From NCBI GenBank assembly GCA_043745785.1, contig JAYTSG010000004.1, positions 570-64,569 on the forward strand: a DNA stretch of 64,000 nucleotides, read 5' to 3'. The notes under the pieces are model-generated. The model did no database searches. It had not been told where the DNA came from and was given only the letters and a program-made list of their open reading frames with translations. Position numbers and translations under genes: made by a program. Position 1 is the first letter of the stretch, and every line of letters begins with the position of its first letter. Below are positions 3,526 through 45,537 of this stretch, piece after piece. Origin of the DNA: a bacterium. Its GTDB lineage: Bacteria > Patescibacteriota > Minisyncoccia > Phycocordibacterales > UBA5272.

Positions 3526-3600
3526 AGGTGCTCATTGTAGCAAGAAAAAAAGCCTTGCGGAACTTGTTTTTTTTGAAAAAAATGGCGGTTGAGGAGTGAG

Positions 3601-3634
3601 TTCTAGGTTCTAGGTTCTAGGTTCTAGGTTCTAG
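3601..3634. repeat. Tandem heptamer microsatellite (TTCTAGG)x~5
   Basis: The sequence ttctaggttctaggttctaggttctaggttctag is read directly. It lies ~75 bp upstream of the ATG of the 2908..3525 gene, in its putative promoter region. Confidence 0.9.
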
Positions 3635-3860
3635 AAAGATTATGTCACTTTCAAAAATTTCAAACTTCCAAGTATTTTCATTCTTGAACTAGTAAGTTCA
3701 CATCTTGGATGCTGCGAAGGCAAGAATCCAGTATATGAAATCCATCATCATACGTTAATGTATACCTCAACCACTTTTATAAGATCTCAAGTATTTTGGT
3801 TCACCCCTCGATACTCATGCGAAATCCAGGTTGCAAGTTGCATAATTTTTACAAACAAAA

Positions 3861-3885
3861 AAGCTCCCTAGAGAAGCGGAGCTTC
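3861..3885. terminator. Hairpin terminator (AAGCTCC...GGAGCTT) flanked by A/T runs
   Basis: The + strand reads aaaaaagctccctagagaagcggagcttctttt, giving a 7-bp stem. The minus-strand reading ends in TTTTTTG. It marks the left boundary of the GC-rich island. Confidence 0.5.
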
Positions 3886-4184
3886 TTTTGGGAGCCTTGG
3901 GGCTCGTCCTATCTAAGTAGGAAGCTGATTGATGAGCCAGATAAGTACTGGGAACAGGAAGATGGTTCCACAGATGGAGAACCGAAAGGCTATAGCTTTG
4001 CGCCTCGCCACTTCGGCGTCGCTCATGTTGGACGGGTTCATGTACGTGCCTTCTTAACCGAAGTCAAGATGAGCAAGGGCTTTGCGCTCTCGTACTGTGG
4101 TACCGGAGAATTCACACATTTCCGGCGGAAGTCCAACGCCATGGGGCTCATCAAACCTTCTGATGAGCCGACAACACCGGTGAT

Positions 4185-4403
4185 CTACCAGCGAAAGTCT
4201 GGCGCGCTCATCAGCTGCGGACAGGTCACCTGCACCCACAATATGGACATGTCGGACATGATGCGGGACTTTTCAAGCAGTTCAGACGGTTTGAAAGACT
4301 TGTGCACCGCGCTCGGTTGCGCGTAGGTCGCCGCTGAGAAGCAGCAACCGAGGACAACGGCGGCAAGGAGAACAAGGACGGACTGGCGAGAAATGTGGAA
4401 CAT
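4185..4403 (-). CDS. Small (72-aa) putative secreted or lipoprotein-like peptide encoded inside the GC-rich island
   Basis: An ATG at 4403 gives MFHISRQSVLVLLAAVVLGCCFSAATYAQP..., a classic signal peptide with an LGC lipobox-like motif. Codon usage is GC3-rich, unlike the rest of the window. No homolog recognised. Confidence 0.3.
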   Translation of the reverse strand: MFHISRQSVLVLLAAVVLGCCFSAATYAQPSAVHKSFKPSELLEKSRIMSDMSILWVQVTCPQLMSAPDFRW

Positions 4404-7166: not shown

Positions 7167-10100
7167 TTAGTTCTTGATTGAGTAGCTTGCTGTAGGGAAG
7201 TTGTAAATCTTAACTCCGTCGTATGTTGTGTTACCACCAACAACGTCAGTCCACTGGAAATCATTAGCAGTATTGGTAACCTGTGTTGAAACAGATACCG
7301 TAGCTCCTGATACAACTGTTCCTGTAGGAACAGCGTAAAGACTGAAAGTCTTAGAAGATCCAGCTGAAAGTGAATATGCTGTTGAGAATGAACACGTAGT
7401 AACGGTTGAAGCGATTGTACACGTTACATTAGGAATCGTTGCTGAACCATCTGCGAGTCTTGCTGAAGCGAGAGTAAGAGCTCCTGAGAGTCCTGACGCA
7501 CCGCTTGAGAACTTGAGCTGGTTAACATTGATTGAACCATTAGCGTCTGGAACGACAGTAACTTCGCCAATCTTATTCTCAGCACCAAGGATGAGACCTG
7601 ATTTTTGAACTGTGTCAACAGTAACTGATGGCTTTGATGCAACGAGTGTCATTGCATTTGCTGAAATGGCAGTAGTTGTTGAAACTGTAGTACCATTTCC
7701 TGATGTAGCCTCAATGTAAGTAAGTGTCGTTGTTGAGATGACACCTGCTGTCAGTGATCCACCAGTTGAAGAATTCTTAAAGCCTGAGTACTTAACGGTC
7801 ACTGGTACATCGGTACCGTTGAGACCAATTGCAATACTAAGACCTGTTACCTTTGCAATACCACCTACGACTGAAGCCTGTACGCCATTAACAGTAACTG
7901 ACTCTACTGAATCATTTCCTGTAATAGAGAAACGAAGCTCACGCACGGTTGCGGCACTGTCTTGTGCAGTCTTGATCTTGTAGGTTGCTACATTACTACT
8001 GACGCCACCGACCACAAATTGTGAAACTGGTGATGATGAGACAATAGCAGGGAGACCAAGAGTTGCCGCTGTTGTTGTAATAGCGACACCAAGTCCTGTT
8101 CCAGAGACGGTAGTATTAGTACCTGAAACTGGTCCACGAGTTGAAAGATCAAGAGTTGCTGTAACTGTACCTGAAGTAACACTTCCTATATCTGCATACA
8201 CATCGAATGTCTTTGTTCCGTTCATAGGGACAACAACATCAGAGAATGAAATAACAGTTGAAGAAGCGCTCACATTTCCTACTGGAGTACCAAGAGTCAT
8301 TGAACCAGTCTTAAGTGAAAGGTTAGTGATATTGGTAAGAGGATAACCAGTAGTACTAAGCGTGACTGTCGCGCTGTTTACTACTGCATCTTCCGCTGAA
8401 TCAGCCTGAAGGGTAAATGAACCAATACGTACGTTTGCAGTATTTGGAGCAACGGTAGCTGCAGCAAAACCTGATGTGCGTCCGTAGCTTCCTACACCAG
8501 ATGAAACAGTAAGGTTGTTACCATTAACACCTGAGCTAGCAACACTCACGATCTCGCTTGAGCTTTGACCTTGAGCATTGTTACCTGCACTACTAAGCTG
8601 AGCTAGTACAGAACCTGCTGTATAGCTTACTGATGTAGTTGACTTGATGTCAGCCTTTACCGATACAGTGACTGTCTGTCCTGCAGGGATAATGAGTGAT
8701 GAACCAAGATTATAGGTAAGAGCACCAGATGACCAGTTCTGTGAAGAACTGATTTGTCCACCATTGAGGTAAAGTCCTACGTTTGTAAGACCCGCCGCTG
8801 CTGGAGTCATTGAACCTAGTACTGGAGTGACATTAAGGGTATTAACCTTAACATCTTCTCCGTATGCCTTCATGGTAAATGAACCAATAGTCATGTTCGT
8901 AGCACCGCCAGTTACTTTACTAGCAACGAAAGCTGGGTCGACGTTCACAACCACGGTTCCTTTGTTGACGGTAATCTGTGGATATGCTGAGTTACTACTG
9001 TTAAGAGGTAGCGTTGCGACTGTTGCAGCAACGTTCACTCCAGTAAGATCACGATCTTCGAACATAAGGTCTGCCACGTTCTCAACTGAGAAAGTCATAG
9101 TACGGTTTGAACCTTTTACTATGTCTCCTCTCACATTGATAGTGTGTGAACCAGTGCGAAGGAAGTAAGGCATAGTCCCAAGATCAAAGACAACTTTATT
9201 GTTGTTCATTGCATTGATCATAGCTGGACCTGCAACCTTAGTGCCATCTACATAGAGTGAAAGATTTGCAACAGAGTCAACTGGTGCAGAACCGACAAAC
9301 TTAAAGGTAGCTGCCTTAAAGTAGACATCGCGAACACCTACACTTGCTGTTGCATCCCAAACGTTGTAGTTGGTTGTTCCAGCATCCACGGTGCGAGCAC
9401 CAGTGACAAGAGGGTTGAAGTTGACGCTTGCGGTAGTAATACCAGAAGCGACAGTAAGGGTGTTACCCATTACATTTGTGAAAGTAGAAGCTGCTGAACC
9501 CATAGCAGTGACGCTGTTGAGTTTAACACCAACTGCATTACCTCCAGATGTTGATGAAAGGTCAGCTCTAACAGTAATAGTACGAGTACCACTAACTGAG
9601 AAGAGTCCTGTTCCTGCATTAAAACGGATGTAACCACCTGTTACAACAGAAGCTGCGTCTGTAAGACGAGTGTTTCCATCGTAAAGGTATACGTTGTTAA
9701 GTGTAGAATCTGTAGAAACACCGATTCTTTGTAGTTCGATGTTTGTTACGGTTCCATTACCTTTGAAAGTAAAATCAGCGAGACGAGCTCCTGACTGTCC
9801 TTGTACAAGCTGTCCTGTAGGCTGTGATCCTGAAAGCATTACAGATACTGGACCTGTGTTACCGGTAGGTGGTACTGGATTTCCCGGTGTTGGCACAGGG
9901 TTACCAGTAACTGAACATAGCTGATTGAGGAGACCACGAGTTCCTGCGAACACGTTTCCTGTAGGAGAGTTGATTCCGAGTTCAGCAAGCTGAAGCATCT
10001 GGAATTTATTAACAGCGGCACGAGTAGCTGGACCAAACTTACTGGTTTCCATTCCTGGAGATCCAGCACCTGATTCAGCGACACGTGTCTGAGGGTACAT

Positions 10101-10283
10101 GTTAAGAACTTTTTGAAGATTCATGACTTGTACTCCTTTTGAACCCATCTTCATGTTCGTATTGAACACGTAAGAACAGTTCATGGTTGGAAGGGCGAGA
10201 GCTGCAGATGCTGTTGAAGCACCAACGATAGCTCCTCCTAGGGCTACTGCAATTGCAGCGGCCTTGATTGAGAGTTTACTCAT
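7167..10283 (-). CDS. Large secreted cell-surface protein: Sec signal peptide, N-terminal peptidoglycan-binding (PGBD-like) domain, Pro-rich linker, then ~900 aa of repetitive Thr/Ser/Val/Gly/Asn-rich beta-sandwich (Ig-like) repeats
   Basis: 1038 aa. The signal peptide is MSKLSIKAAAIAVALGGAIVGASTASA. The PG_binding_1-like segment is GSKGVQVMNLQKVLN...SKFGPATRAAVNKFQ. The linker is NPVPTPGNPVPPTGNTG. The remainder is low-complexity repeats, so the many antisense ORFs in the track are artefacts. Confidence 0.8.
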   Translation of the reverse strand: MSKLSIKAAAIAVALGGAIVGASTASAALALPTMNCSYVFNTNMKMGSKGVQVMNLQKVLNMYPQTRVAESGAGSPGMETSKFGPATRAAVNKFQMLQLAELGINSPTGNVFAGTRGLLNQLCSVTGNPVPTPGNPVPPTGNTGPVSVMLSGSQPTGQLVQGQSGARLADFTFKGNGTVTNIELQRIGVSTDSTLNNVYLYDGNTRLTDAASVVTGGYIRFNAGTGLFSVSGTRTITVRADLSSTSGGNAVGVKLNSVTAMGSAASTFTNVMGNTLTVASGITTASVNFNPLVTGARTVDAGTTNYNVWDATASVGVRDVYFKAATFKFVGSAPVDSVANLSLYVDGTKVAGPAMINAMNNNKVVFDLGTMPYFLRTGSHTINVRGDIVKGSNRTMTFSVENVADLMFEDRDLTGVNVAATVATLPLNSSNSAYPQITVNKGTVVVNVDPAFVASKVTGGATNMTIGSFTMKAYGEDVKVNTLNVTPVLGSMTPAAAGLTNVGLYLNGGQISSSQNWSSGALTYNLGSSLIIPAGQTVTVSVKADIKSTTSVSYTAGSVLAQLSSAGNNAQGQSSSEIVSVASSGVNGNNLTVSSGVGSYGRTSGFAAATVAPNTANVRIGSFTLQADSAEDAVVNSATVTLSTTGYPLTNITNLSLKTGSMTLGTPVGNVSASSTVISFSDVVVPMNGTKTFDVYADIGSVTSGTVTATLDLSTRGPVSGTNTTVSGTGLGVAITTTAATLGLPAIVSSSPVSQFVVGGVSSNVATYKIKTAQDSAATVRELRFSITGNDSVESVTVNGVQASVVGGIAKVTGLSIAIGLNGTDVPVTVKYSGFKNSSTGGSLTAGVISTTTLTYIEATSGNGTTVSTTTAISANAMTLVASKPSVTVDTVQKSGLILGAENKIGEVTVVPDANGSINVNQLKFSSGASGLSGALTLASARLADGSATIPNVTCTIASTVTTCSFSTAYSLSAGSSKTFSLYAVPTGTVVSGATVSVSTQVTNTANDFQWTDVVGGNTTYDGVKIYNFPTASYSIKN

Positions 10284-15361: not shown

Positions 15362-15697
15362 ATGTTTAGAGAAAAAGGAGTACTAGCTGTATGCACGCTC
15401 ATTGGACTACTTTTTGTTATATATGGGGGTATCAAAGCTTTTCCTTATCTCAAAGGACCTGTAGTTATTATTAGTCAACCAAAAGAAGGTAGTCATGTTG
15501 GCACCAGCACCTTCTTACTTACTGGCAAAGCCATACGAAGCAAAGAACTCTACCTTTCTGGTAAAAGCGTCAGCATCGATACTGAGGGTAACTTTAGTCA
15601 GGTTTTTGTTTCTTATGCGCCATATACTATACTAACCGTTGAGGCAGTTGATCGCCATAACAAAAGATCATTACAAACATTAACCGTTGTCCCCTAA
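15362..15697 (+). CDS. Hypothetical small membrane-anchored protein (single N-terminal TM, beta-rich ectodomain)
   Basis: 111 aa. The ATG is 3 bp after the ftsK stop, so the gene is probably co-transcribed. Confidence 0.45.
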   Translation: MFREKGVLAVCTLIGLLFVIYGGIKAFPYLKGPVVIISQPKEGSHVGTSTFLLTGKAIRSKELYLSGKSVSIDTEGNFSQVFVSYAPYTILTVEAVDRHNKRSLQTLTVVP

Positions 15698-19516: not shown

Positions 19517-20107
19517 ATGGCAACACTTGATTATGATGAAATAAAACCAAAGAAGTGCATACTCATCAATGATGAGCCTTACGAAGTGCTCGAATATCAC
19601 GTTGCCAGAACACAAAAGCGTAAGCCTCAAAACCAAGTAAAGATGAGAAATCTTCTCAACGGTAAAGTACTTCCTCACACCTTTCATGCCTCAGATACTG
19701 CTGAGGAAGCGGAGGTGAGGCGTAGCGAAGCAAAATTTCTCTACGAAAGAGGTGGTGAATTTTGGTTCTGTGATCCACGTGATCCAAGTAAGCGTTTTCT
19801 CATCAGCGATAGAGTTATCGGAGATGATTCTCGCTATCTGAAAGAAAATACAGTGATAGAAACAAAAGTATTTGAATTTGATGATGAAGAGAGAATCATT
19901 GGCATCAGTCTTCCTATCAAGATGAACTTTATGGTAAAAGATGCCCCTCCTGCAATCAAAGGCAACACCGCATCTGGCGGAGGAAAGCTCGTCACACTAG
20001 AAACGGGCGCGCAAATTACTACACCCCTTTTTATTGAAGCTGGCGAAATAGTAGTGGTGAATACTAGTACTGGAGAGTATGTAGAGAGATTTAAGGTAGA
20101 GAAATAA
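19517..20107 (+). CDS. efp: Translation elongation factor P
   Basis: 196 aa. ...KPQNQVKMRNLLNGKVLPHTFHASDT... and the C-terminal ...GAQITTPLFIEAGEIVVVNTSTGEYVERFK are typical of EF-P, with the conserved Lys in the KPQ loop. Confidence 0.9.
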   Translation: MATLDYDEIKPKKCILINDEPYEVLEYHVARTQKRKPQNQVKMRNLLNGKVLPHTFHASDTAEEAEVRRSEAKFLYERGGEFWFCDPRDPSKRFLISDRVIGDDSRYLKENTVIETKVFEFDDEERIIGISLPIKMNFMVKDAPPAIKGNTASGGGKLVTLETGAQITTPLFIEAGEIVVVNTSTGEYVERFKVEK

Positions 20108-20142: not shown

Positions 20143-20184
20143 AAATACAAAGTGCGACGCCTTCGGCGTCGCACTTTGTATTTG
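20143..20184. terminator. Bidirectional rho-independent terminator (AAATACAAAGTGCGACGCC ttcg GCGTCGCACTTTGTATTT)
   Basis: Long perfect palindrome with a ttcg loop. It lies 36 bp after the efp stop and serves the convergent minus-strand gene ending at 20385. Confidence 0.85.
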
Positions 20185-20384: not shown

Positions 20385-20735
20385 TTAATAAAACGGAATT
20401 AACTCTGTACCTGGATCAAAACCAATAGAAGCATAGCTACAGGATTCACCTCTTTCTTTTGCAGCATCATACTTTCCACCGAGCTCATAGCACATCTCTG
20501 CGTCAGAAACCAGAAACATTATTTGTCCATTTTCATCCACGCACTTAGTTGTATTAAATGTTTCACCTTTATTTCTACAAGCCGTAATGAGAAGAACTTC
20601 TTCCATTTCAAGAAAGTTAGAAACATCACCGAAAGGGCTCTTACAAATACCTGAGGTAAACGACTCCCTAAGCACAGTATCGCAACTGACAGCGAACACA
20701 ATATCATCATCAGTACTTTTTGATACATCCAGCAT
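20385..20735 (-). CDS. Hypothetical small cysteine-containing protein (116 aa, 8 Cys, no signal peptide)
   Basis: ATG start. It is adjacent to the Cys-rich VirB2-like protein gene. No recognised domain. Confidence 0.35.
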   Translation of the reverse strand: MLDVSKSTDDDIVFAVSCDTVLRESFTSGICKSPFGDVSNFLEMEEVLLITACRNKGETFNTTKCVDENGQIMFLVSDAEMCYELGGKYDAAKERGESCSYASIGFDPGTELIPFY

Positions 20736-20892
20736 GTTTACCTGCTTAAAACCAGGAACAGTGCATGTGTAATTTATTTATAGTCCCTCGCATCTGTGAG
20801 CAGGCATTACTGAGAGATTCGCAGTCTAAACTGACGTCACCACAGTAAGCAACTTCTTTTCTATATTCTGTTTTCAGAATACTTTCACTGCT

Positions 20893-21990
20893 TTAAAGTT
20901 TGCTTACATCTTGTTGACAAGAATACAATTGATTTCCTCCTGTTAATCCAGCTTGACTGCAAGTGAGGCCTGGTCCACAAAATTTATTATTATGAGCTTC
21001 TGGATTACAATATGATCTCTCTTTTAATTCCTCTGCTCCAATAGCGCAATATAATTGCGCTCCTCCTTGGGCATAACATTTACCAGCGTCTCCATTAAAA
21101 GAACAATTTGCCCATAGACTTTTACCATAGCACGTTTCTCCGTTTGATATGCCTGTACTTGGGACTTTACAATAAAATCCGCCGTAAAGATTACTATCAC
21201 ATGTGCCTTTTGTCCCTCCATTATCAGTACATGACTCATTTTGAGTAGAACAATTGGCGTCATCTTGTACAGAAACAGGAGCAGTGCCACCAGCACAGAA
21301 AAGAGCCGTGCGATTGGCATTGTAAGCACAACCCCCACTGATAGTTCTTCTATCATCGTCTCTAAAGGTACAAGGACTTCTTTCCCCTTTCCCGCTACAT
21401 GCATCAAGGGACGCTTGATTGACATTCACAGAACTCACTGCCTTAACAGTACAGAGCACTGGACCGAATGCATTGGAACAAACCCCTACTGAACCATTGG
21501 GTAATGTACAACTTGCTCCGACCTGTTTCCCTGGAGACTTTGCACAATCATCAGAGACTTCGGACTGCGGATCTATCGACTGATTGGTTGGAGTAAGTCC
21601 AGTCGAAGTTTTAGTGCAATCCGTCACAAAATTGAGGCATGGCTTTGCTATTGTGGTAACATCTTTAATCCCCAGCGTCTGCTGCATAAAGTAGATAATG
21701 CCATAGAGAGAGAAGATGATAAAGATAGCAAGGAGAGACCAGAGCATAAATTTTTTTCCTTCATCTGCTTTTTTTGCTTCCCCTTCTTTGATAGACCAGA
21801 TGAATCTGACGAGGCCAGCAAAGAAAGCGACGATAGCAAGAGACATAAGGAGCACTCCGACGACAGCAACTACATTGCCGTTGACGTTTTCTATGAACTT
21901 GCCGAGTTCGTTAACTTGTACGGAAGAGAAGCCGGAGGCAGATGTGTAAGAGAGGGAGAGTGAGGCAAGAAAAATGGTGAGTAGTCTCAT
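20893..21990 (-). CDS. TrbC/VirB2-like pilin-fold N-terminal domain (signal peptide + two TM helices) fused to a ~250-aa extracellular domain with ~38 cysteines
   Basis: The signal peptide is MRLLTIFLASLSLSYTSASG. TM1 is VVAVVGVLLMSLAIVAFFAGLV, followed by a short charged loop. TM2 is FMLWSLLAIFIIFSLYGIIYF. The C-terminal ectodomain is rich in C, G, S, T and N, with many CxxxC / GxC spacings. Confidence 0.6.
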   Translation of the reverse strand: MRLLTIFLASLSLSYTSASGFSSVQVNELGKFIENVNGNVVAVVGVLLMSLAIVAFFAGLVRFIWSIKEGEAKKADEGKKFMLWSLLAIFIIFSLYGIIYFMQQTLGIKDVTTIAKPCLNFVTDCTKTSTGLTPTNQSIDPQSEVSDDCAKSPGKQVGASCTLPNGSVGVCSNAFGPVLCTVKAVSSVNVNQASLDACSGKGERSPCTFRDDDRRTISGGCAYNANRTALFCAGGTAPVSVQDDANCSTQNESCTDNGGTKGTCDSNLYGGFYCKVPSTGISNGETCYGKSLWANCSFNGDAGKCYAQGGAQLYCAIGAEELKERSYCNPEAHNNKFCGPGLTCSQAGLTGGNQLYSCQQDVSKL

Positions 21991-22289
21991 AAAAGGCTTA
22001 TTTTATATAATAGTTTTAGTATAGCAAGGGATTTATTACTTTTCTCTGTTTATACACAGATGGTCTATGTAGATTTCTTTTGACTAGTAGGCATTTTTTA
22101 TAATGTTCATTGACCTCTGACACACTATTGAGTGCATTATTTTTAAGAGCTAAGAAATAACCTACCTCTGGAAACAAGTCTACTCACCTACAAGGTTGTC
22201 GTAGAGATTGATTTAACAATGACTCACTTATGAATACTTATTAGAGAGATACTCAACCAAGTTTCAAAAAATATCATCTTTTCGTTGGG

Positions 22290-23012
22290 TTAGTTAAAAA
22301 AACCTGATAGTGCGTCAGTAAAAAACATAAGTAGTCCCTGCACAAAAATAACGAAGACAGAGAAAATAAGCACGGCAAGGATGTATCCATGAGCCTCTTT
22401 TATTTTCTCTGGTTTTCCTTGTGCTAAGACATACTTAGCCCCCGACATAAACCAGCCAACAACCATAGCAGGGAGTACTACCCAGTTCCATACCATGTTA
22501 CCAAAAATCTTTACCCACACCACTGGTCCACCGGGAAAAAGTGGTGGCGCTTCACTGGCATAGGCATGGTCAATAGGGAGTAATGACGAGAATATCTTGA
22601 AGTATTCAAATGGTTTACGGTAAGCTGGGTCAAGACCAAGTCCGGCTAATATGGATAAAGCTTTTAAACACACAAATATTCCAAAAAATCCTCCAGCAAT
22701 CTGTAGTAATCGTTTTTTCATATTGGTATGTATCTGAGCTTGCTCACCAAACGCTCCAGCAGCAACATCTTTAGCATAATAAAAACCAAACATTATTAGT
22801 GAAAAAACAGCTCCAAGAAGTAGAAGTAGCTGTACATTATTATCAAAATAAGAAGGAATATCTGATACTTTGCATTGTTGCGTATTCATATCTGGTCCTG
22901 GCAGACAAACGAGCTTAGACAAACCAGATCCCTGCGCATGAACACTAACTAAACCGACAAACATAATCACTGTACTCAGTAGTCCCCTCAGGAATATTTT
23001 TTTACTTTGCAT
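22290..23012 (-). CDS. Membrane protein with signal peptide and TrbC/VirB2-like two-helix core plus additional TM helices
   Basis: An ATG at 23012 gives MQSKKIFLRGLLSTVIMFVGLVSVHAQ, a signal peptide, followed by 4-5 TM helices. The track ORF extends to 23072 and overlaps the upstream gene. Confidence 0.5.
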   Translation of the reverse strand: MQSKKIFLRGLLSTVIMFVGLVSVHAQGSGLSKLVCLPGPDMNTQQCKVSDIPSYFDNNVQLLLLLGAVFSLIMFGFYYAKDVAAGAFGEQAQIHTNMKKRLLQIAGGFFGIFVCLKALSILAGLGLDPAYRKPFEYFKIFSSLLPIDHAYASEAPPLFPGGPVVWVKIFGNMVWNWVVLPAMVVGWFMSGAKYVLAQGKPEKIKEAHGYILAVLIFSVFVIFVQGLLMFFTDALSGFFN

Positions 23013-24306
23013 ACATATCATTGAGCGCTGACACAAAAGTAGCAGATGCTTCAGAGTCTCCTTTTTTGCCACTTACTATGTCATTTACTGCAGTAGTGAG
23101 TAAATTAGTCGATGCCGATTCCCTCAAATCATACCAGCCACGTGTTACCAGGATGCTCGCTTTCATGCCCGAGTCGAGATTTTGATCAGCGGAAAGCACA
23201 GAGCGTATAGGGCTTAATTTATAGGTGGCAACATCGAGTAAACTGGCATACTTACTAGTGGCAAGCGTCGACTGCGCGACATACGCGGTATTTAATAATG
23301 CAGGCGGTGTACGCTTCATCACCGCTATGCCATACATCTTCATGCTGTTAGCTCGCGATTCATACCCTCTTGCTTGCGGAAATGGACTCAAATAAAAATT
23401 GAGACGCTCATTCTTCGCTATAATATCTTTATATTCTCCTGAGTATCCAAAATAAAGGGCAAGTTTACCCGCAGAAAATGCATCAATATCGGTCATTCCT
23501 GTATAATTATTCCACGAATAGGACTCTTTGCTCGGATCAGAAAATTGTGTAAAAAGCTTCAGAGATTCGCGTAGCGGTAGTACGACACTTTGTTCCGAAA
23601 GCGGTACATTACCACTAAAATGAAGAGCTCCATTATTATCCACTGACACTGGATCTTGGCCAAGAGACTCAACAAGACTCATAATAATTTCTTTGGCATG
23701 AATGACGTTAGTCATCGAACCGAGACCCACACCATAGGTAATAAATGAACCATTTTGGTCTCTCTTGGTAATCTTTGGCGTCACAGAGAGCAGATCGTCC
23801 CAATATGCAGGGACTGTCGCTAAGCCATTTTTAGAAATGATGTCACGATTTACAAACATCATCATTGGCTCAACTGTCATAGGGAATGCCAAGATACCTT
23901 CCCCTGTCAAAAAGATAGAGGCGCCATCAATATAAGCATTTTTAAAATCATTCACCGGAAAAGAAGCAAGTGGATAAGGATTTACTCTCTGCTTTTGAGA
24001 CAAAATAGTCTTATAATTAGCAAGTATCATGTCTGGCCCCTCGCCATTAGCGAGTGCGTTAACTAAAATATCCTCAAATCTATCTTCTGGCATTTCTTCA
24101 TAAGAAACAGAATAGGTCTTTGCGTCAACATTAAATTTATTGAGTACGTCATTGACCTGATCTGCAGGAAGTGTCCCCCACATGACTAGTTTACCGATAG
24201 TTTTACCACTCTTTTCTGAACAGCCAATAGGAAGCTTACAAGAAAAGAGGAGAAAGGCAAAGACAGCTGACATGATAGCTATAGCAGTAATGATTTTTTT
24301 ATACAT
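23002..24306 (-). CDS. Lipoprotein, extracellular solute-binding protein (ABC-transporter substrate-binding protein family 1-like)
   Basis: 434 aa. The signal/lipobox is ...AFLLFSCKL. The overall composition and length fit a periplasmic-binding-protein fold (sugar/oligosaccharide-type SBP). No adjacent permease or ATPase genes are present. Confidence 0.55.
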   Translation of the reverse strand: MYKKIITAIAIMSAVFAFLLFSCKLPIGCSEKSGKTIGKLVMWGTLPADQVNDVLNKFNVDAKTYSVSYEEMPEDRFEDILVNALANGEGPDMILANYKTILSQKQRVNPYPLASFPVNDFKNAYIDGASIFLTGEGILAFPMTVEPMMMFVNRDIISKNGLATVPAYWDDLLSVTPKITKRDQNGSFITYGVGLGSMTNVIHAKEIIMSLVESLGQDPVSVDNNGALHFSGNVPLSEQSVVLPLRESLKLFTQFSDPSKESYSWNNYTGMTDIDAFSAGKLALYFGYSGEYKDIIAKNERLNFYLSPFPQARGYESRANSMKMYGIAVMKRTPPALLNTAYVAQSTLATSKYASLLDVATYKLSPIRSVLSADQNLDSGMKASILVTRGWYDLRESASTNLLTTAVNDIVSGKKGDSEASATFVSALNDMYAK

Positions 24307-24309: not shown

Positions 24310-24834
24310 CTAAAGGCTTTTTGCAATAAATGCATAGTGATAATCTCCCGCTGGTAAACGAGCCATGATACGAAATCCGCCAGAGACAAAAAGGTCTTCC
24401 GCCTGACTTTCAGTGAAAACATGGTCTTTGTGTGGTCCGATACCTGCATGACTTTTTGACCAATCGACGACGAGGGCAAGACCTTCTGGAATAAGAACTC
24501 TTTTGATTTCTTTGAGTGCCTTCTTTTTATCTTCTATCATAAAGAGAGTGTTGGAAACAACAACAGCATCTAGTGAATACGAGTCGAGATACAGCCCTTC
24601 CTCTATATCGGCCCAAATAATATCGACATTAACATAACCAAGTGCATCGAGAGTCTTTTTTGCAGAGTCTAATACTTCTTTATGTATATCAACAGCATAT
24701 ACTTTTCCTTCTTCTCCAACTTTTTTAGCAAGTGAAATGAGATACGCCCCACTCCCCGAACCAATATCAGCTACGACCCCCCCATCTCGTATAAAAAGAT
24801 GATCTATCAAATGTTCTGGTGTGAGAAATGCCAT
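24310..24834 (-). CDS. Class I SAM-dependent methyltransferase
   Basis: Motif I is VVADIGSGSGAYLISLA, followed by an acidic residue after beta-2 (VYAVDI). 174 aa. Confidence 0.75.
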   Translation of the reverse strand: MAFLTPEHLIDHLFIRDGGVVADIGSGSGAYLISLAKKVGEEGKVYAVDIHKEVLDSAKKTLDALGYVNVDIIWADIEEGLYLDSYSLDAVVVSNTLFMIEDKKKALKEIKRVLIPEGLALVVDWSKSHAGIGPHKDHVFTESQAEDLFVSGGFRIMARLPAGDYHYAFIAKSL

Positions 24835-33070: not shown

Positions 33071-33826
33071 CTAGGATCTTGGTTTAATAAAATCTGTTAC
33101 AACTATACTTTTCTGTGTCCCTCGATAATTATAAAAAATGGTGACGTCAACCCTTACATCATCACGATATGAACATTCATACGAGGGACAAACTGAACCC
33201 ATCGATGTTAATTTAACAACCCTTCTTATTTGGGTGTTTATAGCTTTCGTTGTCGTGTGATCATTACAAAGATACATAAAATCTGTTGAAGATGTTGACG
33301 TAATGTTGTTTATTTGAACACTTCTGTCTTGATTAAGACTACTACAGTTACTAGTTGAGGCGTCATAAAGGTCTACAGGTATAGCGTTGGCGTTTGGATT
33401 TTTGAGTATGCCATACATATCAAAAACACAACCATTTACAGAGAAACAATAAGTATTACTCGTACCTCCAAACTGATTTTTAAAAACTTTCCAAGCAGTT
33501 TCATTCGGTGTTTCTTGCACTCCAGTAGACAAAATCGTAGACGAAGCAGCCAAGCACATAGCAGAACTAGGATCAGAACATTCCATAAAGACACTGTCGC
33601 GTCTAAAACGAACTAGTTCAATAGCCTCCTGACCTAAGAAAGTTGCTGTAAAAAGTTCTCGGCTGTAACGTATTTCTTGCGCTGCACGCCCGGCTATTAC
33701 CATTGGTCCACCAATAGAAACTGAAATAATAAAAATACCAATCATGGCTTCAATGAGAGTAAAGCCACACAACGGTTGATGAGAGAGACTCTTTTTTATA
33801 CGTCTGACAATGTGTAGTATATTCAT
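33071..33826 (-). CDS. Prepilin-type N-terminal cleavage/methylation domain protein (minor pilin)
   Basis: N-terminus ...LCGFTLIEAMIGIFIISVSIGG, a class III signal peptide. 251 aa. Confidence 0.7.
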   Translation of the reverse strand: MNILHIVRRIKKSLSHQPLCGFTLIEAMIGIFIISVSIGGPMVIAGRAAQEIRYSRELFTATFLGQEAIELVRFRRDSVFMECSDPSSAMCLAASSTILSTGVQETPNETAWKVFKNQFGGTSNTYCFSVNGCVFDMYGILKNPNANAIPVDLYDASTSNCSSLNQDRSVQINNITSTSSTDFMYLCNDHTTTKAINTQIRRVVKLTSMGSVCPSYECSYRDDVRVDVTIFYNYRGTQKSIVVTDFIKPRS

Positions 33827-33829
33827 ATG

Positions 33830-34519
33830 TTATATATCGATATGCCTTGCCGTAATAGTTGTCTGTAGCTGAAAATGAGAATCACCTGACTTAGTGTTCG
33901 AAATGATGGCTCTTCCTGCGATAATCATGGTTATCACTGGTTGAAAATTATCTGCTGTTGATCCAGGAGCATTTGCGGTGCTGTCATTAGTCATCACCGT
34001 CTGTGTCGTGTTTGCTCCTTGCACGAAAAAACGAAGTGTATCTATATAAACATCATCTCCGGTAATAGGGAGAGTGGAAGTAGCTCCAAGAGTATCGAGT
34101 ACATATTCATACACTTTTCCTCCAGAAAGATAATATCCTTTACGTACGTTAGCTGCCACTGCCCCCGAGGGCTTAAACATGAGAGCAGTTCCCCCTTCTA
34201 GACTGACGCCAGGATAACTACTCCACAGAAAAGGACAGCCTTGTCGATAGGCTCTATACGTATCTTCTATATTGTTACTACAAAAGAAGACACTACCGTA
34301 ACGAACATCTCGAGAGATAAGGTCAAAACTATTATTAAGATTATCCATCACCAGACGCAAACCATCGACCCTAGCATATGAATGTTGTACCGCGAAGAGC
34401 GCTTCTATTGCTATAGTCATAGCCGTCACGAATATAGAAGAAGCGATAAGGAGTTCAATCAAAGTAAAGCCACTACGTGAGTTACCTTTTATTATTTTTA
34501 TGAGAGACCTCTTATGCAT
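33830..34519 (-). CDS. Prepilin-type N-terminal cleavage/methylation domain protein (minor pilin)
   Basis: N-terminus ...SRSGFTLIELLIASSIFVTAMTIAIEAL. 229 aa. Confidence 0.7.
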   Translation of the reverse strand: MHKRSLIKIIKGNSRSGFTLIELLIASSIFVTAMTIAIEALFAVQHSYARVDGLRLVMDNLNNSFDLISRDVRYGSVFFCSNNIEDTYRAYRQGCPFLWSSYPGVSLEGGTALMFKPSGAVAANVRKGYYLSGGKVYEYVLDTLGATSTLPITGDDVYIDTLRFFVQGANTTQTVMTNDSTANAPGSTADNFQPVITMIIAGRAIISNTKSGDSHFQLQTTITARHIDI

Positions 34520-34525
34520 GAGTAT

Positions 34526-36232
34526 TTAGTGTACTAAAATTTTAGTAACATTATTTGAACCATTGTTTGCAGTGTAAACATTGCCAAAGTTGTCTACCGT
34601 AATAGATTCTGGCGAGTTTCCAGTAGTTCCATAATTGACGGTAACAATGCCAGCGGTAGATATTTTTGTCACAGTACTTGAGTTTTGATTTGCAGTAAAG
34701 ACATTTCCTGAAGAATCAGTAGCGATAGCTGCTGGACTTGCTCCTGTCGATCCTCCAAAATTTAGTGTAACGATACCAGAACTGTTAATTTTAGTAACAC
34801 TATCCTTACTAGTATTTGCAGTAAAAACATTATTAAAAACATCAGTCGCAATTGCATAGGGAGTAACTCCTGTACTAGCAAAATTAATGGTAACGAGTCC
34901 ACTTGCATCTATTTTAGAAACAGTATTATTGCCAAAATTTGCAGTATAGACATTATCAGCTGTATCAATTGCAATATCATTAGGATTTGTTCCGACGGAA
35001 AACTGAGCTACTAAAACCCCTGCTGGACTTACTTTTAGAACTTTACTTTGACTAAATAGAGCGACATAAATATTTCCAAATGAGTCAACATCTATAGCAA
35101 CTGGACGCCCCCCAGTGAGATAAAAAGGAGTGACAGCAACCCCCGTACTCATATCAACTTTTGAAATACTGCCAGGCGCTCCATAGTCTGCTGTGTAGAG
35201 GCTTGACCTCGCTTCATCAAGTACGATTCCTTTTGGTAAGGGTCCGACATTACTAAAAAATACACCAAGTCCAGCGGGACTTATTTTAGCCACGTCTGAA
35301 GGACCGAAATTTGATGTGTACATATTTCCTAGCGAGTCTACAGCTATATCCGATGGATTGACACCTGAAAATCCGCTAATAGGAAAAGTCTGACTATTTG
35401 ATTTATTTTCAGTACAGCTACTAGTTCCACCACCATTTTGCCCACTACATTGCCAAGTCCATGTGTTTACTCCACTTAGGGGGCTACTGCTATTGCCAGT
35501 CACACAAGAATAATGCAGGGTACTACAAACTCCAGAAGTAGGGAGTAGTGTCAACGGTCCCACTTGCGTACACCTGCCCAATAAAGTTGAAATAAGTCCA
35601 GTCTTAGTTACTAGTACACTTCTTGAATAGCCATTTTTATGACTTGCTTCGTCAATTTTATTTGAAACAAGTTCGACGCAACTAGCCGCATACAGTGTAC
35701 TTGTGCTATTGTTAACAAAAATCCATGGCTCTGGGTTCGGCCTTTCATACTCAATACTTAAATCTGTAAAATCACCATTCTTACTACAAAAGGAAAATGG
35801 TCTGCTGATAGTAGTGCTACTGACACAGGTGTTATCTATATGAAATCCTTCAGGAAGGGTTACCGTCTTAAAATTTTCAGTCACCCCATCGTAAAGACGA
35901 TTACCAAGAAATATGCCATTTCTCTGGTTGGTAGTTATTTTATCTGCGTACTCTTTATACATTTGACTGCTGTTGCTTGCAAATTGCATACCAAATCCTG
36001 CATATGCTTGTCCGTAAGTGCTGACAGAACTCGCTTTAAGTTGAGCTTCACGAATATCACTTCCTAAATCACCTGTCATATTTGATAATCTCGTTTTCTC
36101 TGCTGAGTCTGGGTATCTTGAAAGCACCACAGTAGAGAGAGTTCCAATAATAGCGAGCACCACCATCATTTCAATAAGAGTAAAGCCTTTTCTATGAAAT
36201 ATTTTGCTGGGCAGCTGATAACGAGACTTCAT
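34526..36232 (-). CDS. Pseudopilin (GspH/PilV-like N-domain) fused to a C-terminal multi-blade beta-propeller (NHL / YVTN-like repeats)
   Basis: The N-terminus is HRKGFTLIEMMVVLAIIGTLSTVVL. The C-terminal half carries ~7 repeats of the form P.AIA.D..GNVYTAN.G.NTV(S/T)KI. Confidence 0.75.
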   Translation of the reverse strand: MKSRYQLPSKIFHRKGFTLIEMMVVLAIIGTLSTVVLSRYPDSAEKTRLSNMTGDLGSDIREAQLKASSVSTYGQAYAGFGMQFASNSSQMYKEYADKITTNQRNGIFLGNRLYDGVTENFKTVTLPEGFHIDNTCVSSTTISRPFSFCSKNGDFTDLSIEYERPNPEPWIFVNNSTSTLYAASCVELVSNKIDEASHKNGYSRSVLVTKTGLISTLLGRCTQVGPLTLLPTSGVCSTLHYSCVTGNSSSPLSGVNTWTWQCSGQNGGGTSSCTENKSNSQTFPISGFSGVNPSDIAVDSLGNMYTSNFGPSDVAKISPAGLGVFFSNVGPLPKGIVLDEARSSLYTADYGAPGSISKVDMSTGVAVTPFYLTGGRPVAIDVDSFGNIYVALFSQSKVLKVSPAGVLVAQFSVGTNPNDIAIDTADNVYTANFGNNTVSKIDASGLVTINFASTGVTPYAIATDVFNNVFTANTSKDSVTKINSSGIVTLNFGGSTGASPAAIATDSSGNVFTANQNSSTVTKISTAGIVTVNYGTTGNSPESITVDNFGNVYTANNGSNNVTKILVH

Positions 36233-36481
36233 AGAGATATGATACCACGAGAATCTACCTACGTCATTGGAACAAGAAAGCTTTCAAAGTTTTTTAAACG
36301 CTACTTTAGGTGATACTGCATCACACCTTTATCTGCTGGAGACAGCTCTAACTTAAACTAGCAACTACACAGACGCAAGCTCGGGTGAATTAAATCCGTG
36401 CAAAAGTTTTCACGAAAGTAGTTTAAGGACTTGCTCATATGATATACCTAGTACTCTCTTACTAGACTAGTACTTGTATAT

Positions 36482-38065
36482 CTAAGGTACTAAGTAACAA
36501 AGATCAGATCTCCACGTACAGTCTGGTTGTCTAGGAGTAAGAGTAGTGTCACCTCCTGGACAGTACAGAGGAGTTCCTGTACACGTCCCTGGTGTTACTG
36601 CTATTGGTGGCACAGTTACTATATATCGAGATTTTCTAGCAGTGTTTCCAGCCACATCTGCCACTGAGTAGACTTCTGTAGTGACTGCGTCTGGTATAGA
36701 GGTATTAAGAGTGGTTGTAGCGAGGGTGATGCGGGTAGAGGTGGCTTGCGTGACGGTGATTTTGCTGACATTATTTGAGTAATAGTTTGCGGTATAGATA
36801 TTGCCGGATGAGTCGATGGTGATTCCTTGAGGACTTGTACCCGTACTACCTAAGATACTTGATACTCCAGCGGGGGTGATTTTGCTGACATTATTTGAGG
36901 TATAGTTTGCGGTATAGATATTGCCGGATGAGTCGATGGTGATGGCATAAGGAGATGTACCCGTACTACCTACTAAGATACTTGATACTCCAGCGGGGGT
37001 GATTTTACTGACATTATTTGAACCAACGTTTGCGGTATAGATATTGCCGGATGAGTCGATGGTGATTCCTTGAGGATTTGAGCCATTAAGAAACTGAGCG
37101 AGAATAGAAGAAGTCGCAGACTCTGGCGTAGCCACTGTATATGCGACAGTAGTATACGCTCTCGTAATCTTTGAAGTAATGTTGCCATCGACATTGTCCA
37201 TCGCAGTTGCGCCTGGGTCGATATAGCCACTAGACTGTGTGAGCCAGTATATTTGAGAGTTATTGAGTGTGATAACTGGTGCAGTCTTGTCGGTACCAAA
37301 AATAGTTGAGGTATTACCCGAAGTTATCAAACCACCTACACCAGAGTTGGGAGTGGTGTTGAATGTAACATCAGTCGGTGCTTCATCGCAGGCTCCGAGT
37401 GCGGTTGTAGAAAAGCCAGACTGAGAGATAATCATGTTACGCACTTTACCGACTGCTATAGAATTTTTAGAAGCAAACTCAATACACGTAGCAGCATAGC
37501 GGGTACTGGTTGCATTGTTGATATAAATAATTGGCTGAGTCGTTGAACGAGCATAACTAACCGTGACGGTACCTAAAGCACTATTAGTGCGAGAACAAGA
37601 AGAAGTAGCAAAAGGACGTGCTGTGCCGTCTCCAACGCAAATATTACGCAAATAGAAACCTTCAGGGATTTTGACTATTTTTGAGATTTCTGTTGCAGCA
37701 TTAAAAATGCTATCACCGATAAGACTACCAGAGAGGTCAGTACTCGATCCTATTTGCATATCTTTAAACTGCACAAACTTCGTTGTTGAGGCAGCGTCAA
37801 AATAAAGACCATACCCTGCTGCTGTATCGCCTGATGTTTCAATACCTCCAGCTTTCAATTGTGAATCTCTAGCGACACCTTGCATGTCTGAGACAGCATT
37901 AGCAAGTTCTACTTTAGTCGCAGAATCTGGATAATTTGCAAGAAGTATTGATGAAATCAGTGCAAAAAGAGCCATGGTAACCATGACATCAATAAGAGTA
38001 AAGCCAGACTCTTTTTCATTACTTTCTTTTAATAATTTTCCAAGCTTTGTAAGTATTTTTTTCAT
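36482..38065 (-). CDS. Pseudopilin fused to an Ig-like (DUF5011-like) domain and NHL-type beta-propeller repeats
   Basis: The N-terminus is KESGFTLIDVMVTMALFALISSILL. A DUF5011-like segment is DKTAPVITLNNSQIYWLTQSSGYIDPGATAMDNVDGNITSKI. Three 41-aa repeats SPQGITIDSSGNIYTAN..SNNVSKITPAGVSSIL follow, and the tail is Cys-rich. Confidence 0.75.
   Translation of the reverse strand: MKKILTKLGKLLKESNEKESGFTLIDVMVTMALFALISSILLANYPDSATKVELANAVSDMQGVARDSQLKAGGIETSGDTAAGYGLYFDAASTTKFVQFKDMQIGSSTDLSGSLIGDSIFNAATEISKIVKIPEGFYLRNICVGDGTARPFATSSCSRTNSALGTVTVSYARSTTQPIIYINNATSTRYAATCIEFASKNSIAVGKVRNMIISQSGFSTTALGACDEAPTDVTFNTTPNSGVGGLITSGNTSTIFGTDKTAPVITLNNSQIYWLTQSSGYIDPGATAMDNVDGNITSKITRAYTTVAYTVATPESATSSILAQFLNGSNPQGITIDSSGNIYTANVGSNNVSKITPAGVSSILVGSTGTSPYAITIDSSGNIYTANYTSNNVSKITPAGVSSILGSTGTSPQGITIDSSGNIYTANYYSNNVSKITVTQATSTRITLATTTLNTSIPDAVTTEVYSVADVAGNTARKSRYIVTVPPIAVTPGTCTGTPLYCPGGDTTLTPRQPDCTWRSDLCYLVP
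36761..37097. repeat. Intragenic tandem DNA repeat, ~123-bp period x ~2.7 copies (encodes NHL-like 41-aa blades)
   Basis: Near-identical units begin GTGATTTTGCTGACATTATTTGAG... at 36770, 36888 and 37011. Confidence 0.85.
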
Positions 38066-38068
38066 TAT

Positions 38069-38857
38069 TTATAGCATAGCACGATAGATAAGCGTCACGA
38101 GCTCTGATACTTGCCAACCTGTGAACAATACAAGCAGAAAAGAGATAATAATAAATGGTGCGAAGGGAATAGCTCTATCTTTTTTTATCTTTTTAAGAAG
38201 TAAAAGTGGGATAACGGTGAGTGTCCCTATCCAAAGGGATAACAAAAAGACCATAATACCTTCATCCAGAGTTACAAATGCACCAACACCCGCAAAAAGA
38301 AGCACGTCACCAAAACCTACCCCTCTACCGAGGGTAATAAGAAAAAGCAAGAGGTACGGAAGAGCTACGATGAAAGGACTCGCCAGTTCGAGATATGAAT
38401 GGCTGACTCCAAATCTACTAATAAGTGGAAAGAGTGACAACGTTAGAAAAAGATAGAGAAAAACTCTTGGAATAATCTTATGATTGAGATCATACAGAAA
38501 AATGACTCCGAGAGTAACGATTGTGACGAGAAGAAAGGCAAGATACATCAGTTCATGAGAAGAAAGGATATGGAGCGGAAGTATGTATTTTGCTGTAACG
38601 ACAGCAAAAAGGAAACCAAACACTGCTTCAAAAATGGCATGAGTATACCCAAATCGAACTTTACAATAGCGACATTTCCCTCTCAATAAAAGACACGATA
38701 CCATAGGTATCATGTCTTTCGTTGAAAGCATATGTGAGCAGGAGAGACACTTACTGCGACTATTTATTATTGGAGCGACATGAAGTCTGCCAGCAATAAC
38801 GCCAACAAAACTACCAAACGCAGTACCGACAATAAATGAGAGAGCGAGAATCACCAC
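38069..38857 (-). CDS. pilD: Prepilin peptidase (A24 family, PilD/GspO) with N-terminal Zn-binding CxxC...CxxC
   Basis: The Zn-binding cysteines are CLSCSH...CRYCKV. The catalytic Asp motifs are ...IFLYDLNHKIIP and ...GRGVGFGDVLLFAG. The start is GTG. Confidence 0.85.
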   Translation of the reverse strand: MVILALSFIVGTAFGSFVGVIAGRLHVAPIINSRSKCLSCSHMLSTKDMIPMVSCLLLRGKCRYCKVRFGYTHAIFEAVFGFLFAVVTAKYILPLHILSSHELMYLAFLLVTIVTLGVIFLYDLNHKIIPRVFLYLFLTLSLFPLISRFGVSHSYLELASPFIVALPYLLLFLITLGRGVGFGDVLLFAGVGAFVTLDEGIMVFLLSLWIGTLTVIPLLLLKKIKKDRAIPFAPFIIISFLLVLFTGWQVSELVTLIYRAML

Positions 38858-38872
38858 AAACTTTTTGTATAC

Positions 38873-39679
38873 TTAGTAAGCGTCAGAGAGATCAAAAACA
38901 CACATATCTACTGTCGCGCAAGTTGATGAGGCATTTTCATTTGTTCCTTTTCCGTAGAAGTCAGAATCTTGGTTTGGAATCATGGTATGCGCTAGGAAAT
39001 TATAGTGCTGGAAACCCCACGGTGAAGGCCCTACAACTGCAAGTGGAGTACCAACGGGTGTAACACCAGTAAGTAAGGCTGACGTTCCTACCACTGGACT
39101 AGTAGATGAAGTAAGAGGGTGGAAGAAAGCTGAGGATACAGATGACGTAGACTGAACAATGAAGTTCACGCACGGTCCACCAATCTTTTGTCCTGTCATA
39201 CCTGAGGTTGATGTACTAATAACCCCCCAACAGTCATTGTCGTCCGCAAGTACTGTGTTAAAGACTTCGAGTGAAACTCCGAGGTGATATCCAAATGTTG
39301 TTGTTCCGTAAGTTGCGCTTGCAAGTGAGGAAGGAGAGAGACCTCTGTATGAGACAAACATAGTCTTATCCTTAGCTGATCCTGACTTGAGACTCGATGG
39401 TAGGTTTGGCATATACTGAGGTGAAAGACTAGAGAGGTCAATACCTAGTGCTGTTGTAGAACCCGCCGGGTACTGCCCATTGTCATTAGCGAAGTTTGCA
39501 AGAGCAGTTTGCATCTGCTTGATTTCAGCAATTTTCTTAACGTCTTTAGCTTTCTTACGAGCTGTCTGCACTGGTGCTGCAACGATGGTCGAAAGAAGAC
39601 CAATGATGGCGATTACCACGAGTAGTTCGATAAGGGTAAAGCCTTTAAATGATTTTTTTGTTAATGTAGTAAGTTGCAT
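38873..39679 (-). CDS. pilA: Type IV major pilin (PilA-like)
   Basis: An ATG at 39679 gives MQLTTLTKKSFKGFTLIELLVVIAIIGLLSTIVAAPVQ. The C-terminal region is Cys-containing. The track ORF extends further upstream. Confidence 0.8.
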   Translation of the reverse strand: MQLTTLTKKSFKGFTLIELLVVIAIIGLLSTIVAAPVQTARKKAKDVKKIAEIKQMQTALANFANDNGQYPAGSTTALGIDLSSLSPQYMPNLPSSLKSGSAKDKTMFVSYRGLSPSSLASATYGTTTFGYHLGVSLEVFNTVLADDNDCWGVISTSTSGMTGQKIGGPCVNFIVQSTSSVSSAFFHPLTSSTSPVVGTSALLTGVTPVGTPLAVVGPSPWGFQHYNFLAHTMIPNQDSDFYGKGTNENASSTCATVDMCVFDLSDAY

Positions 39680-39785
39680 AATATTATGTACTAATAATTG
39701 TACTCTTTTAGTGTAGCAAGTATCTTTTGTATTACAAGCAGTTATGCACAGTTTTTTCGTGAAATATATCTGCAAATGATTCGCA

Positions 39786-41015: not shown

Positions 41016-41021
41016 ACAGTA

Positions 41022-42080: not shown

Positions 42081-42106
42081 AGTGACAGTATAGCAAGAGT
42101 TATGAA

Positions 42107-44751: not shown

Positions 44752-44752
44752 A

Positions 44753-45535: not shown

Positions 45536-45537
45536 AA

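Follow-up and report, generated by a model that had tools for sequence, protein, structure and literature searches.

The 64,000-nucleotide (nt) stretch of Patescibacteriota DNA analysed here (the window; GenBank GCA_043745785.1, contig JAYTSG010000004.1) carries, between positions 20,385 and 24,306, the local version of an operon that is shared within the Paceibacteria/Parcubacteria section of the Patescibacteria and in which a gene for a solute-binding protein (SBP), often preceded by a methyltransferase gene, is followed by an array of VirB2-like pilin genes, beside gyrA. The locus belongs to the known Patescibacterial VirB2-like pilin arrays and is no new kind of system, because such arrays have already been published for Patescibacteria. 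Apparently undescribed are the near-obligatory pairing of the array with a partner-less SBP, a fused pilin and a pilin with a Cys-rich tail, and the interest of the locus rests mainly on these. The preferred reading, to which a probability of about 0.6 may be assigned, is that the pilins are polymerised by a distant type IV secretion system (T4SS) into a surface-displayed filament bearing Cys modules, alongside a membrane-tethered, glycan-binding SBP.

Four open reading frames (ORFs) make up the locus; they and the methyltransferase gene lie on the minus strand, and the four stand where the first-pass annotation of this DNA had placed them. All positions are those of the whole window. In the direction of transcription the ORFs encode a MalE-like family-1 SBP of 434 amino acids (aa) with an N-terminal hydrophobic anchor (23002..24306), which is the first gene of the array operon; a double pilin of 243 aa (22290..23021, counted from the ATG at 23021); a tailed pilin of 365 aa (20893..21990); and a 116-aa protein with 6 Cys (20385..20735).

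The gene set and its order recur across Patescibacteria, where the first-pass annotation had put forward co-occurrence of the two pilin-like genes as a check. Genome loci were obtained by scanning species-representative genomes with the pilin profile, which returned 78 loci, all in Patescibacteria, and their neighbouring ORFs were clustered; metagenome loci were sampled independently from the SBP side, where at least 569 stretches encode relatives of the SBP. An SBP orthologue lies on the same strand and directly upstream of the pilin genes in 69 of 82 genome loci, mostly with a gap of -74 to +27 nt before the first pilin gene, and a pilin ORF is found within 150 nt of the SBP stop codon in 63 of the 66 metagenome loci that have at least 500 nt of downstream sequence. 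Because set and order recur at these frequencies, the association of the genes is not due to chance, and the SBP is a near-obligatory first gene of such arrays. The number of pilin genes is 3–6 in 63 of the 82 genome loci, in the stretch examined, and 4–8 in metagenome loci with room for them.

The order of the backbone is MBL-fold (metallo-beta-lactamase) gene, gyrA, EamA gene (in some loci), methyltransferase, SBP and pilins. The methyltransferase gene, which in the window lies 3 nt upstream of the SBP gene, holds this position in 55 of the 82 genome loci and in 70 of 80 metagenome loci, and gyrA is syntenic in 53 of the 80 metagenome loci. The downstream flank varies and may consist of the gene for GlyRS, for a membrane protein of unknown function or, as in the window, for EF-P; the other recurrent neighbours are housekeeping genes (S1, IF-2, GAPDH, RbfA and transketolase). 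Two styles of array were distinguished. In 43 loci, including the window, the double pilin is followed by a tailed pilin and then by short pilins, and 66% of the tailed pilins of this style have at least four Cys in the tail. In 25 loci there are short single pilins only. Divergence of the SBP, the pilins and the tails is much more rapid than that of the housekeeping genes next to them: where GyrA proteins share 84–85% identity between genomes, the SBPs of the same genomes share about 40%, and identity with the closest relative is 97% for EF-P, 95% for RecA, 92.5% for the pilin core and 85% for the tail.

The layout originally described for the 365-aa protein is upheld by sequence, hydropathy and structure prediction alike. 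A signal peptide (aa 1–19) precedes two hydrophobic helices (about aa 35–68 and aa 80–106) with the Lys/Glu loop SIKEGEAKKADEGKKF between them. AlphaFold2, supplied with 150 relatives, predicts a long hairpin (H25–69 and H72–105) with a predicted local distance difference test score (pLDDT) above 90 (87–96 over aa 41–110); together with the alignment of the relatives, in which F56, G59, S94 and G97 are invariant, the model places the pilin core at aa 25–105 (21676..21918). By profile, the N-terminal 130 aa are a divergent PF18895 (T4SS_pilin, VirB2-like) domain, since, of the 150 proteins that score best with the N-terminal profile, 83 match PF18895 (best E 1.5e-24). The window protein itself scores 15.6 bits (E 0.017, aa 35–100), below the gathering threshold of 26.6 bits, and its match to NF045849, an NCBIfam model for pilin-like proteins of mycoplasma integrative and conjugative elements, is likewise sub-threshold (E 0.083). 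Word-indexed homologue searches had returned just 5 and 2 relatives, the five sharing a highly conserved N-terminal 135 aa followed by divergent tails, and had given the impression that the genes are nearly unique. This was overturned by an exhaustive hidden Markov model (HMM) search with the N-terminal 141 positions, which recovered 4306 protein clusters at E ≤ 1e-3 and 521 at E ≤ 1e-10.

The first-pass annotation had called both proteins TrbC/VirB2-like. A conjugative-type pilin family holds for the two of them through PF18895, but TrbC itself (PF04956) has no match in the window proteins (E up to 10), in the 150 relatives (E up to 0.001) or in 25 orthologues of the double pilin (E up to 0.1). 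Of the two outcomes that had been named as counting against that annotation, the absence of PF04956 similarity was thus observed, and the other, a match of the Cys-rich domain to an unrelated family such as a zinc ribbon, was not, the domain having no match at all. A tentative likeness to genuine VirB2/TrbC appears solely in profile-profile comparison: hhalign of the array profile against six annotated plasmid VirB2/TrbC proteins gave a probability of 72% (E 3e-5), or 58% (E 1e-4) with a narrower profile, and reversed-sequence controls gave 1.7% and 0.2%. The alignment is in register from the end of the signal peptide through helix, loop and helix. A sequence search of the PDB with the pilin profile returned nothing, and Foldseek found nothing significant for the AlphaFold2 model of the tailed pilin among PDB or viral structures.

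The gene at 22290–23012 had been taken to repeat a single two-helix core; profile comparison shows that its product is a fusion of two pilin units. The 243-aa window protein has no Pfam match, and a first-pass hmmsearch against a narrow pilin profile was not significant (E 4.1). When 25 orthologues were compared with the pilin profile by hhalign, two matches were obtained, one per half, with probabilities of 90% (E 1.5e-6) and 89% (E 2.1e-6), the reversed controls giving 2.3% and 0.9%. An iterated HMM likewise resolved two domains (E 5e-6 and 4e-14), and PF18895 is matched by 18 of the 25 orthologues (best E 6e-10). The longest ORF spans 22290–23072, with alternative starts at ATG 23012 (240 aa) and GTG 23072; the likely start is ATG 23021 or 23012. 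From either ATG the 5' end overlaps the 3' end of the SBP gene by 11–20 nt, and from GTG 23072 by up to 71 nt.

In the alignment of orthologues a signal peptide ending in V-x-A-Q is followed by a conserved Cys pair (a predicted Cys40–Cys51 hairpin), the first helical hairpin, a linker and the second helical hairpin. Unit 1 occupies aa 62–126 (22647..22841, in the numbering of 22290–23024) according to AlphaFold2, hydropathy and the first hhalign match. Unit 2, with the loop AQGKPEKIKEAHG, occupies aa 166–243 (22296..22529) according to AlphaFold2 and the stronger HMM domain; its orthologues have an AQGNPEK loop, and Q202 and P205 are invariant. The AlphaFold2 model of the double pilin (13-sequence alignment, pLDDT 45) is used for helix positions only (H62–89, H96–126, H166–200 and H205–243). 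Across the 25 orthologues the linker closes with (H)AYA(Q), which is nearly invariant, and LPNPL comes after it (consensus AYAxxxxxLPNPL), with A156 at least 90% conserved; in the window the A-Y-A motif lies at aa 154–156 (22557..22565). Since hhalign places this internal AYA against the signal-peptide end ('AQ') of single pilins, the motif looks like a retained signal-peptidase I site, at which cleavage may be hypothesised.

The SBP matches PF13416 (E 1.1e-13, 52.1 bits) and PF01547 (E 1.2e-12, 48.9 bits), well above the respective cut-offs of 27 and 26 bits. A PDB sequence search with the SBP alone returned nothing, but a profile of 39 orthologues matches sugar/maltose-binding proteins at E values from 3e-17 (4r9f) to 1e-8. 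It had been annotated as an ABC-type (ATP-binding cassette) solute-binding lipoprotein; the solute-binding part of this stands, and the lipoprotein part is doubtful. At the lipobox position the window protein reads LLFSC, and most orthologues read LIFSGK, with Gly instead of Cys, which points to an SBP that is probably helix-anchored. The anchor region (window 24220–24306) carries a motif, LIFSGKLPIG, that is kept across orthologues only about 40% identical overall; its conservation suggests that it does more than anchor the protein in the membrane and acts as a signal for function or processing. The first-pass annotation is right that the SBP has no permease or ATPase partner nearby: none was seen among the ORFs scanned in the window, and within 6–10 kb in 162 loci a single ABC-ATPase-like ORF, with Walker A and an LSGGQ signature, was found.

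The region beyond the second helix of the tailed pilin had been described as an ectodomain with about 38 Cys in GxC and CxxxC spacings. The whole 365-aa protein has 22 Cys, namely C118 and C125 in the conserved linker KPCLNFVTDC and 20 in the tail. GxC does occur, before the third Cys in four of the five tail modules, but CxxxC does not, as consecutive Cys are 6–24 residues apart (6–14 inside modules). The tail is composed of five tandem modules (20908..21558; aa 145–183, 194–235, 243–277, 283–318 and 324–361) of 35–42 aa with 4 Cys each, for which the family consensus is ASSSCSGKAAGASCTLPNGASGTCQASNEGAFYCQPG. With an HMM built from the five repeats and iterated in the family, the module is recognised in 36 of the 150 relatives; three such iterations dilute the self-match of the five window repeats, which nevertheless retain E values of 5e-11 to 3e-4. 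No direct DNA repeats were found in the locus; therefore the modules represent old duplications. In relatives the tail typically comprises a Gly/Ser/Thr/Pro-rich linker and then a Cys region whose number of Cys is almost always even (4 in 38 proteins, 8 in 27, 12 in 19, and up to 24). Since tails are common across the relatives, tail fusion is a family trait, of which the 365-aa protein is at the high end.

The tail should be extracytoplasmic, as first proposed, because the hairpin before it is exported by Sec and has most of its positive charge in the loop, and the tail comes after the second helix. Its Cys would then be joined by disulfide bonds, and this is supported by the reported enrichment of candidate phyla radiation (CPR) genomes in VKOR and an MdbA-like oxidoreductase, which form disulfides outside the cytoplasm (bioRxiv 10.1101/335083). 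For the tail AlphaFold2 predicts small sheets of three strands, with uneven confidence. Searches of Pfam and of PDB sequences with the tail by itself returned no match at E up to 10; among relatives, a few match families rich in disulfides (Dickkopf_N, the EB module and an antifungal peptide family). As a separate observation, one related locus (L002) has tandem tailed-pilin paralogues (1868–2962 and 2990–4204) whose 5' ends are 100% identical (at least 300 nt of DNA, about 235 aa) and whose Cys-rich tails are quite different thereafter; this pattern reflects either a recent duplication with tail replacement or an assembly artefact.

The 116-aa ORF had been taken for a small cytoplasmic protein with 8 Cys. 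It has 6 Cys, no signal peptide and no pilin core, and the one sequence that it matches is the final ~100 aa of a pilin-family protein of 445 aa in another locus of the set (L011): identity is 29% (pairwise E 3e-10), several Cys coincide and the C-terminal ends are alike. Its ATG is preceded, 14 codons upstream, by a stop codon, and the closest syntenic contigs have no counterpart. It lies inside the transcription unit, because it is upstream of the terminator at 20143–20183. The ORF is thus probably a truncated tail module, the remnant of a third array gene, rather than a cytoplasmic Cys protein.

VirB2-like pilins of Patescibacteria have been surveyed by Quinonero-Coronel et al. (2025), who searched 3035 genomes with PF04956, PF18895 and CONJScan profiles and found them in 1948 assemblies, near virB4 in 1135 and not near it in 813; they described 441 arrays of 2–11 highly divergent pilin genes, widespread in Patescibacteria and most abundant in Microgenomatia and Saccharimonadia, and noted that the T4SS is often near dnaA and that relaxases are mostly absent (PMC12102498). 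A T4SS with a series of pilins is essential for the epibiotic growth of Southlakia epibionticum (Wang et al. 2023; PMC10633639), although a 2025 review regards the pilus as not yet demonstrated (PMC12857230). The first-pass proposal that the locus is no standard T4SS but perhaps a CPR-specific filament is correct in that no T4SS is encoded locally, and understates this published record. The present locus shares with the published arrays PF18895, tandem and highly divergent paralogues in a CPR chromosome, the lack of a relaxase or coupling-protein context and a frequent location away from virB4. It differs in the MalE-like SBP that heads the array, in the fused double form of the first pilin gene and in the five 4-Cys modules of the second. 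Moreover, this locus type comes from metagenome-assembled genomes deposited as Paceibacterota/Parcubacteria, Nomurabacteria, Kaiserbacteria and Zambryskibacteria, many also as 'uncultured Saccharibacteria', in contrast to the published centre of abundance. Neither the SBP partner nor the double pilin nor the tails of Cys modules were found described in the array literature, PMC12102498 and PMC10633639 included, though coverage of that literature was incomplete and a prior description is possible.

With the VirB2/TrbC/TraA pilins of Gram-negative T4SS the window pilins share a signal peptide, two long hydrophobic helices and a short charged loop, besides the tentative in-register profile similarity. 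In the F pilus the N- and C-termini of the pilin are on the outside and the inter-helix loop faces the lumen (PMC5018250), and outside termini are predicted for the window pilins too. In contrast, the latter have no PF04956 match, a monoderm host, no adjacent virB genes and a fused two-unit form, and the tailed pilin has a long C-terminal extension where the C-terminus of VirB2/TrbC/TraA is trimmed or cyclised. The archaeal Ced/Ted pilins (PDB 8dft, Pyrobaculum calidifontis) are different: sequence identity is 3%, their context is DNA import, and they have neither a Cys tail nor an SBP. For an SBP whose gene accompanies a surface or transfer apparatus and not an ABC permease of its own, parallels exist in PrgZ of pCF10 and in the Sulfolobus 'bindosome'. 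PrgZ, however, is a peptide binder of the OppA type and relies on the Opp permease of the host, whereas the window SBP is MalE-like; and bindosome SBPs carry type IV pilin signal peptides, whereas the window SBP has an ordinary N-terminal anchor and is paired with VirB2-type pilins.

Under the preferred reading, the pilins would be exported by Sec and would sit in the membrane as helical hairpins with both termini outside and the charged loop inside, from where a T4SS encoded at another site, in Patescibacteria usually near dnaA, would extract and polymerise them as in the case of VirB2 and TraA. On the surface of the filament or of the cell, the disulfide-bonded modules may form variable knobs for contact with, or adhesion to, the host cell; outward display is expected because both termini face outward in conjugative pili. 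The tailed pilin would more likely be a minor or decorating subunit than the bulk one, and the 116-aa ORF would be a decayed third array gene. The tethered SBP probably binds a host-derived glycan, either for capture or for recognition of the host surface alongside the filament.

Several points weigh against this reading. No VirB4, VirB6 or VirD4 is encoded in the window, where the only P-loop ORFs above 300 aa are RecA, FtsK, PilB (two), PilT and EF-Tu; the first-pass annotation had already reported VirB4 and VirB6 as missing. Nor was a T4SS assembly gene recognised among the recurring neighbour families of related loci (rare neighbours being unannotated), so that dependence on a T4SS is assumed. 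To our knowledge, no pilus of PF18895 proteins has been seen in any organism. The window proteins themselves are below the Pfam thresholds of the pilin family, a VirB2-type helix would hardly accommodate a tail of 237 aa on each of its subunits, and the window array has no short tail-less pilin. The basis for disulfide bonding is topology and even Cys numbers, and the gyrA–methyltransferase–SBP backbone is conserved as a whole, so that the adjacency of SBP and pilins could partly reflect inherited gene order and overstate their functional coupling.

Some of these points would equally suit the main competing explanation, according to which the pilin-like proteins are membrane anchors that tether variable disulfide-rich ectodomains and form, with the tethered SBP, a surface receptor or uptake complex that needs no T4SS. 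The lack of recognised T4SS genes in the window and among recurring neighbour families, the bulky tail and the missing tail-less pilin all agree with it, as do the translational coupling of the SBP to the first membrane protein and the weak specificity of helical-hairpin matches. It is nevertheless considered unlikely. PF18895 membership is clear, the in-register similarity to VirB2/TrbC exceeds the reversed controls, and related arrays hold 2–6 short pilins (85–150 aa) without any ectodomain, for which there would be nothing to tether; in Saccharibacteria, furthermore, the arrays lie inside the T4SS cluster and are essential (PMC10633639). The conserved backbone bears on a different possibility, that the SBP is functionally unrelated to the pilins and is an ordinary sugar binder serving a distant ABC importer, its position being due to an inherited gyrA–methyltransferase–SBP–pilin order. 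The synteny of the methyltransferase gene and gyrA (70 and 53 of the 80 metagenome loci) and the typical MalE-type family-1 profile, with many invariant aromatic residues, would be expected in that case. This is rather improbable, however, as the SBP–pilin junction is kept while the downstream flank changes among GlyRS, the unknown membrane protein and EF-P, the genes lie on the same strand and overlap or are a few nt apart, the SBP diverges as fast as the pilins do (about 40% identity, GyrA being at 85%), and almost no ABC component occurs within 6–10 kb in the 162 loci.

With regard to the tail, the high density and regular spacing of its Cys could indicate metal binding, in a zinc-ribbon-like fold or an iron-sulfur scaffold, instead of disulfide modules. 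This is very improbable, considering that CxxC and CxxxC pairs are absent and spacings within modules are 6–14 residues, that the region lies beyond the second membrane helix of a Sec-exported protein and hence outside the cell, that the Cys numbers of relatives are almost always even, that no zinc-ribbon or other Pfam family matches at E up to 10, and that the occasional matches of relatives are to the disulfide-rich Dickkopf_N, EB module and antifungal peptide families. A bolder extension of the filament reading would see in the locus a capture device new to bacteria, for nutrients or for the host, in which a VirB2-like filament with interchangeable disulfide-knotted modules acts jointly with a dedicated sugar binder for which there is no ABC transporter; such a device would let an ultra-small episymbiont recognise or harvest host glycans through a pilus/T4SS route, and the double pilin would be a polyprotein cut at AYA into two subunits. 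This extension is speculative and, at present, quite unlikely to be correct.

The locus is set in an ordinary Patescibacteria-like chromosome segment with recA, ftsK, ligA, gyrA, ribosomal protein genes, EF-Tu and a type IV pilus cluster. The GC content is about 40% across the window, without a compositional island at the locus. An origin from a mobile element, phage or plasmid was rejected, because the flanks are housekeeping genes (gyrA, EF-P, recA and ftsK) and the same backbone is kept in relatives. The four ORFs lie between a convergent EF-P gene (19517–20107) and the methyltransferase/EamA/gyrA block, of which the methyltransferase (24310..24834, minus strand, 174 aa) is a class I S-adenosylmethionine-dependent enzyme by its matches to Pfam Methyltransf_31/11/25 (E 1e-17 to 1e-20). 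A bidirectional intrinsic terminator (20143..20183), with a perfect 19-bp stem including 9 G-C pairs, is situated between EF-P and the pilin operon and closes both. The 299-nt intergenic gap between the two pilin genes (21991..22289, minus strand) is unusually long, relatives having far shorter gaps at the same junction (about 15 nt in the relative locus L015); it may mark the site of a lost gene or of an internal promoter. A weak sigma-70-like match just upstream of the tailed pilin gene (22027–22000) is no better than expected from shuffled sequences.

The type IV pilus cluster of the window (33071–46701 and 51893–53182) is complete, with PilM, PilO, PilB, PilT, PilC, a prepilin peptidase and several N_methyl pilins; two type IV pseudopilins are fused to NHL/SBBP beta-propeller domains (34526–36232 and 36482–38065), and a second PilB-like ATPase stands apart from the cluster. 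The N-terminal methylation motif (PF07963, N_methyl) has no match in either pilin-like protein or in the SBP, the true type IV pilus genes being separate, at 33–46 kb. Two orphan proteins of about 1040 aa (7167–10283 and 60692–63832) have no Pfam or NCBIfam match and are mutually dissimilar. The former has a signal peptide and is represented in relatives by a 1041–1050-aa protein at the same position; the latter has hydrophobic segments near aa 791–830. They were considered as hidden VirB4 homologues and rejected, having no P-loop and no family match. Directly after ftsK, a 111-aa ORF (15362–15697) has a weak Glucodextran_B-like match (E 2.6e-4), and ORFs of 102–111 aa occupy the same position in relatives. 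ARAGORN detected no tRNA or tmRNA gene over the 64-kb window.

Patescibacteria make up a large share of bacterial diversity and are host-dependent, and a T4SS with a pilin array is essential in the sole species tested. What the Patescibacterial T4SS and its arrays transport or touch is a question that this type of operon helps to address: a partner-less SBP joined operonically to the array implies a ligand to be sought, the conserved internal cleavage-like motif of the double pilin points to a processing step, and the fast-evolving modular disulfide tails are candidate host-contact surfaces. The pattern is frequent, with hundreds of SBP matches in metagenomes and 4306 pilin-domain clusters, and could serve as a marker in Paceibacteria.

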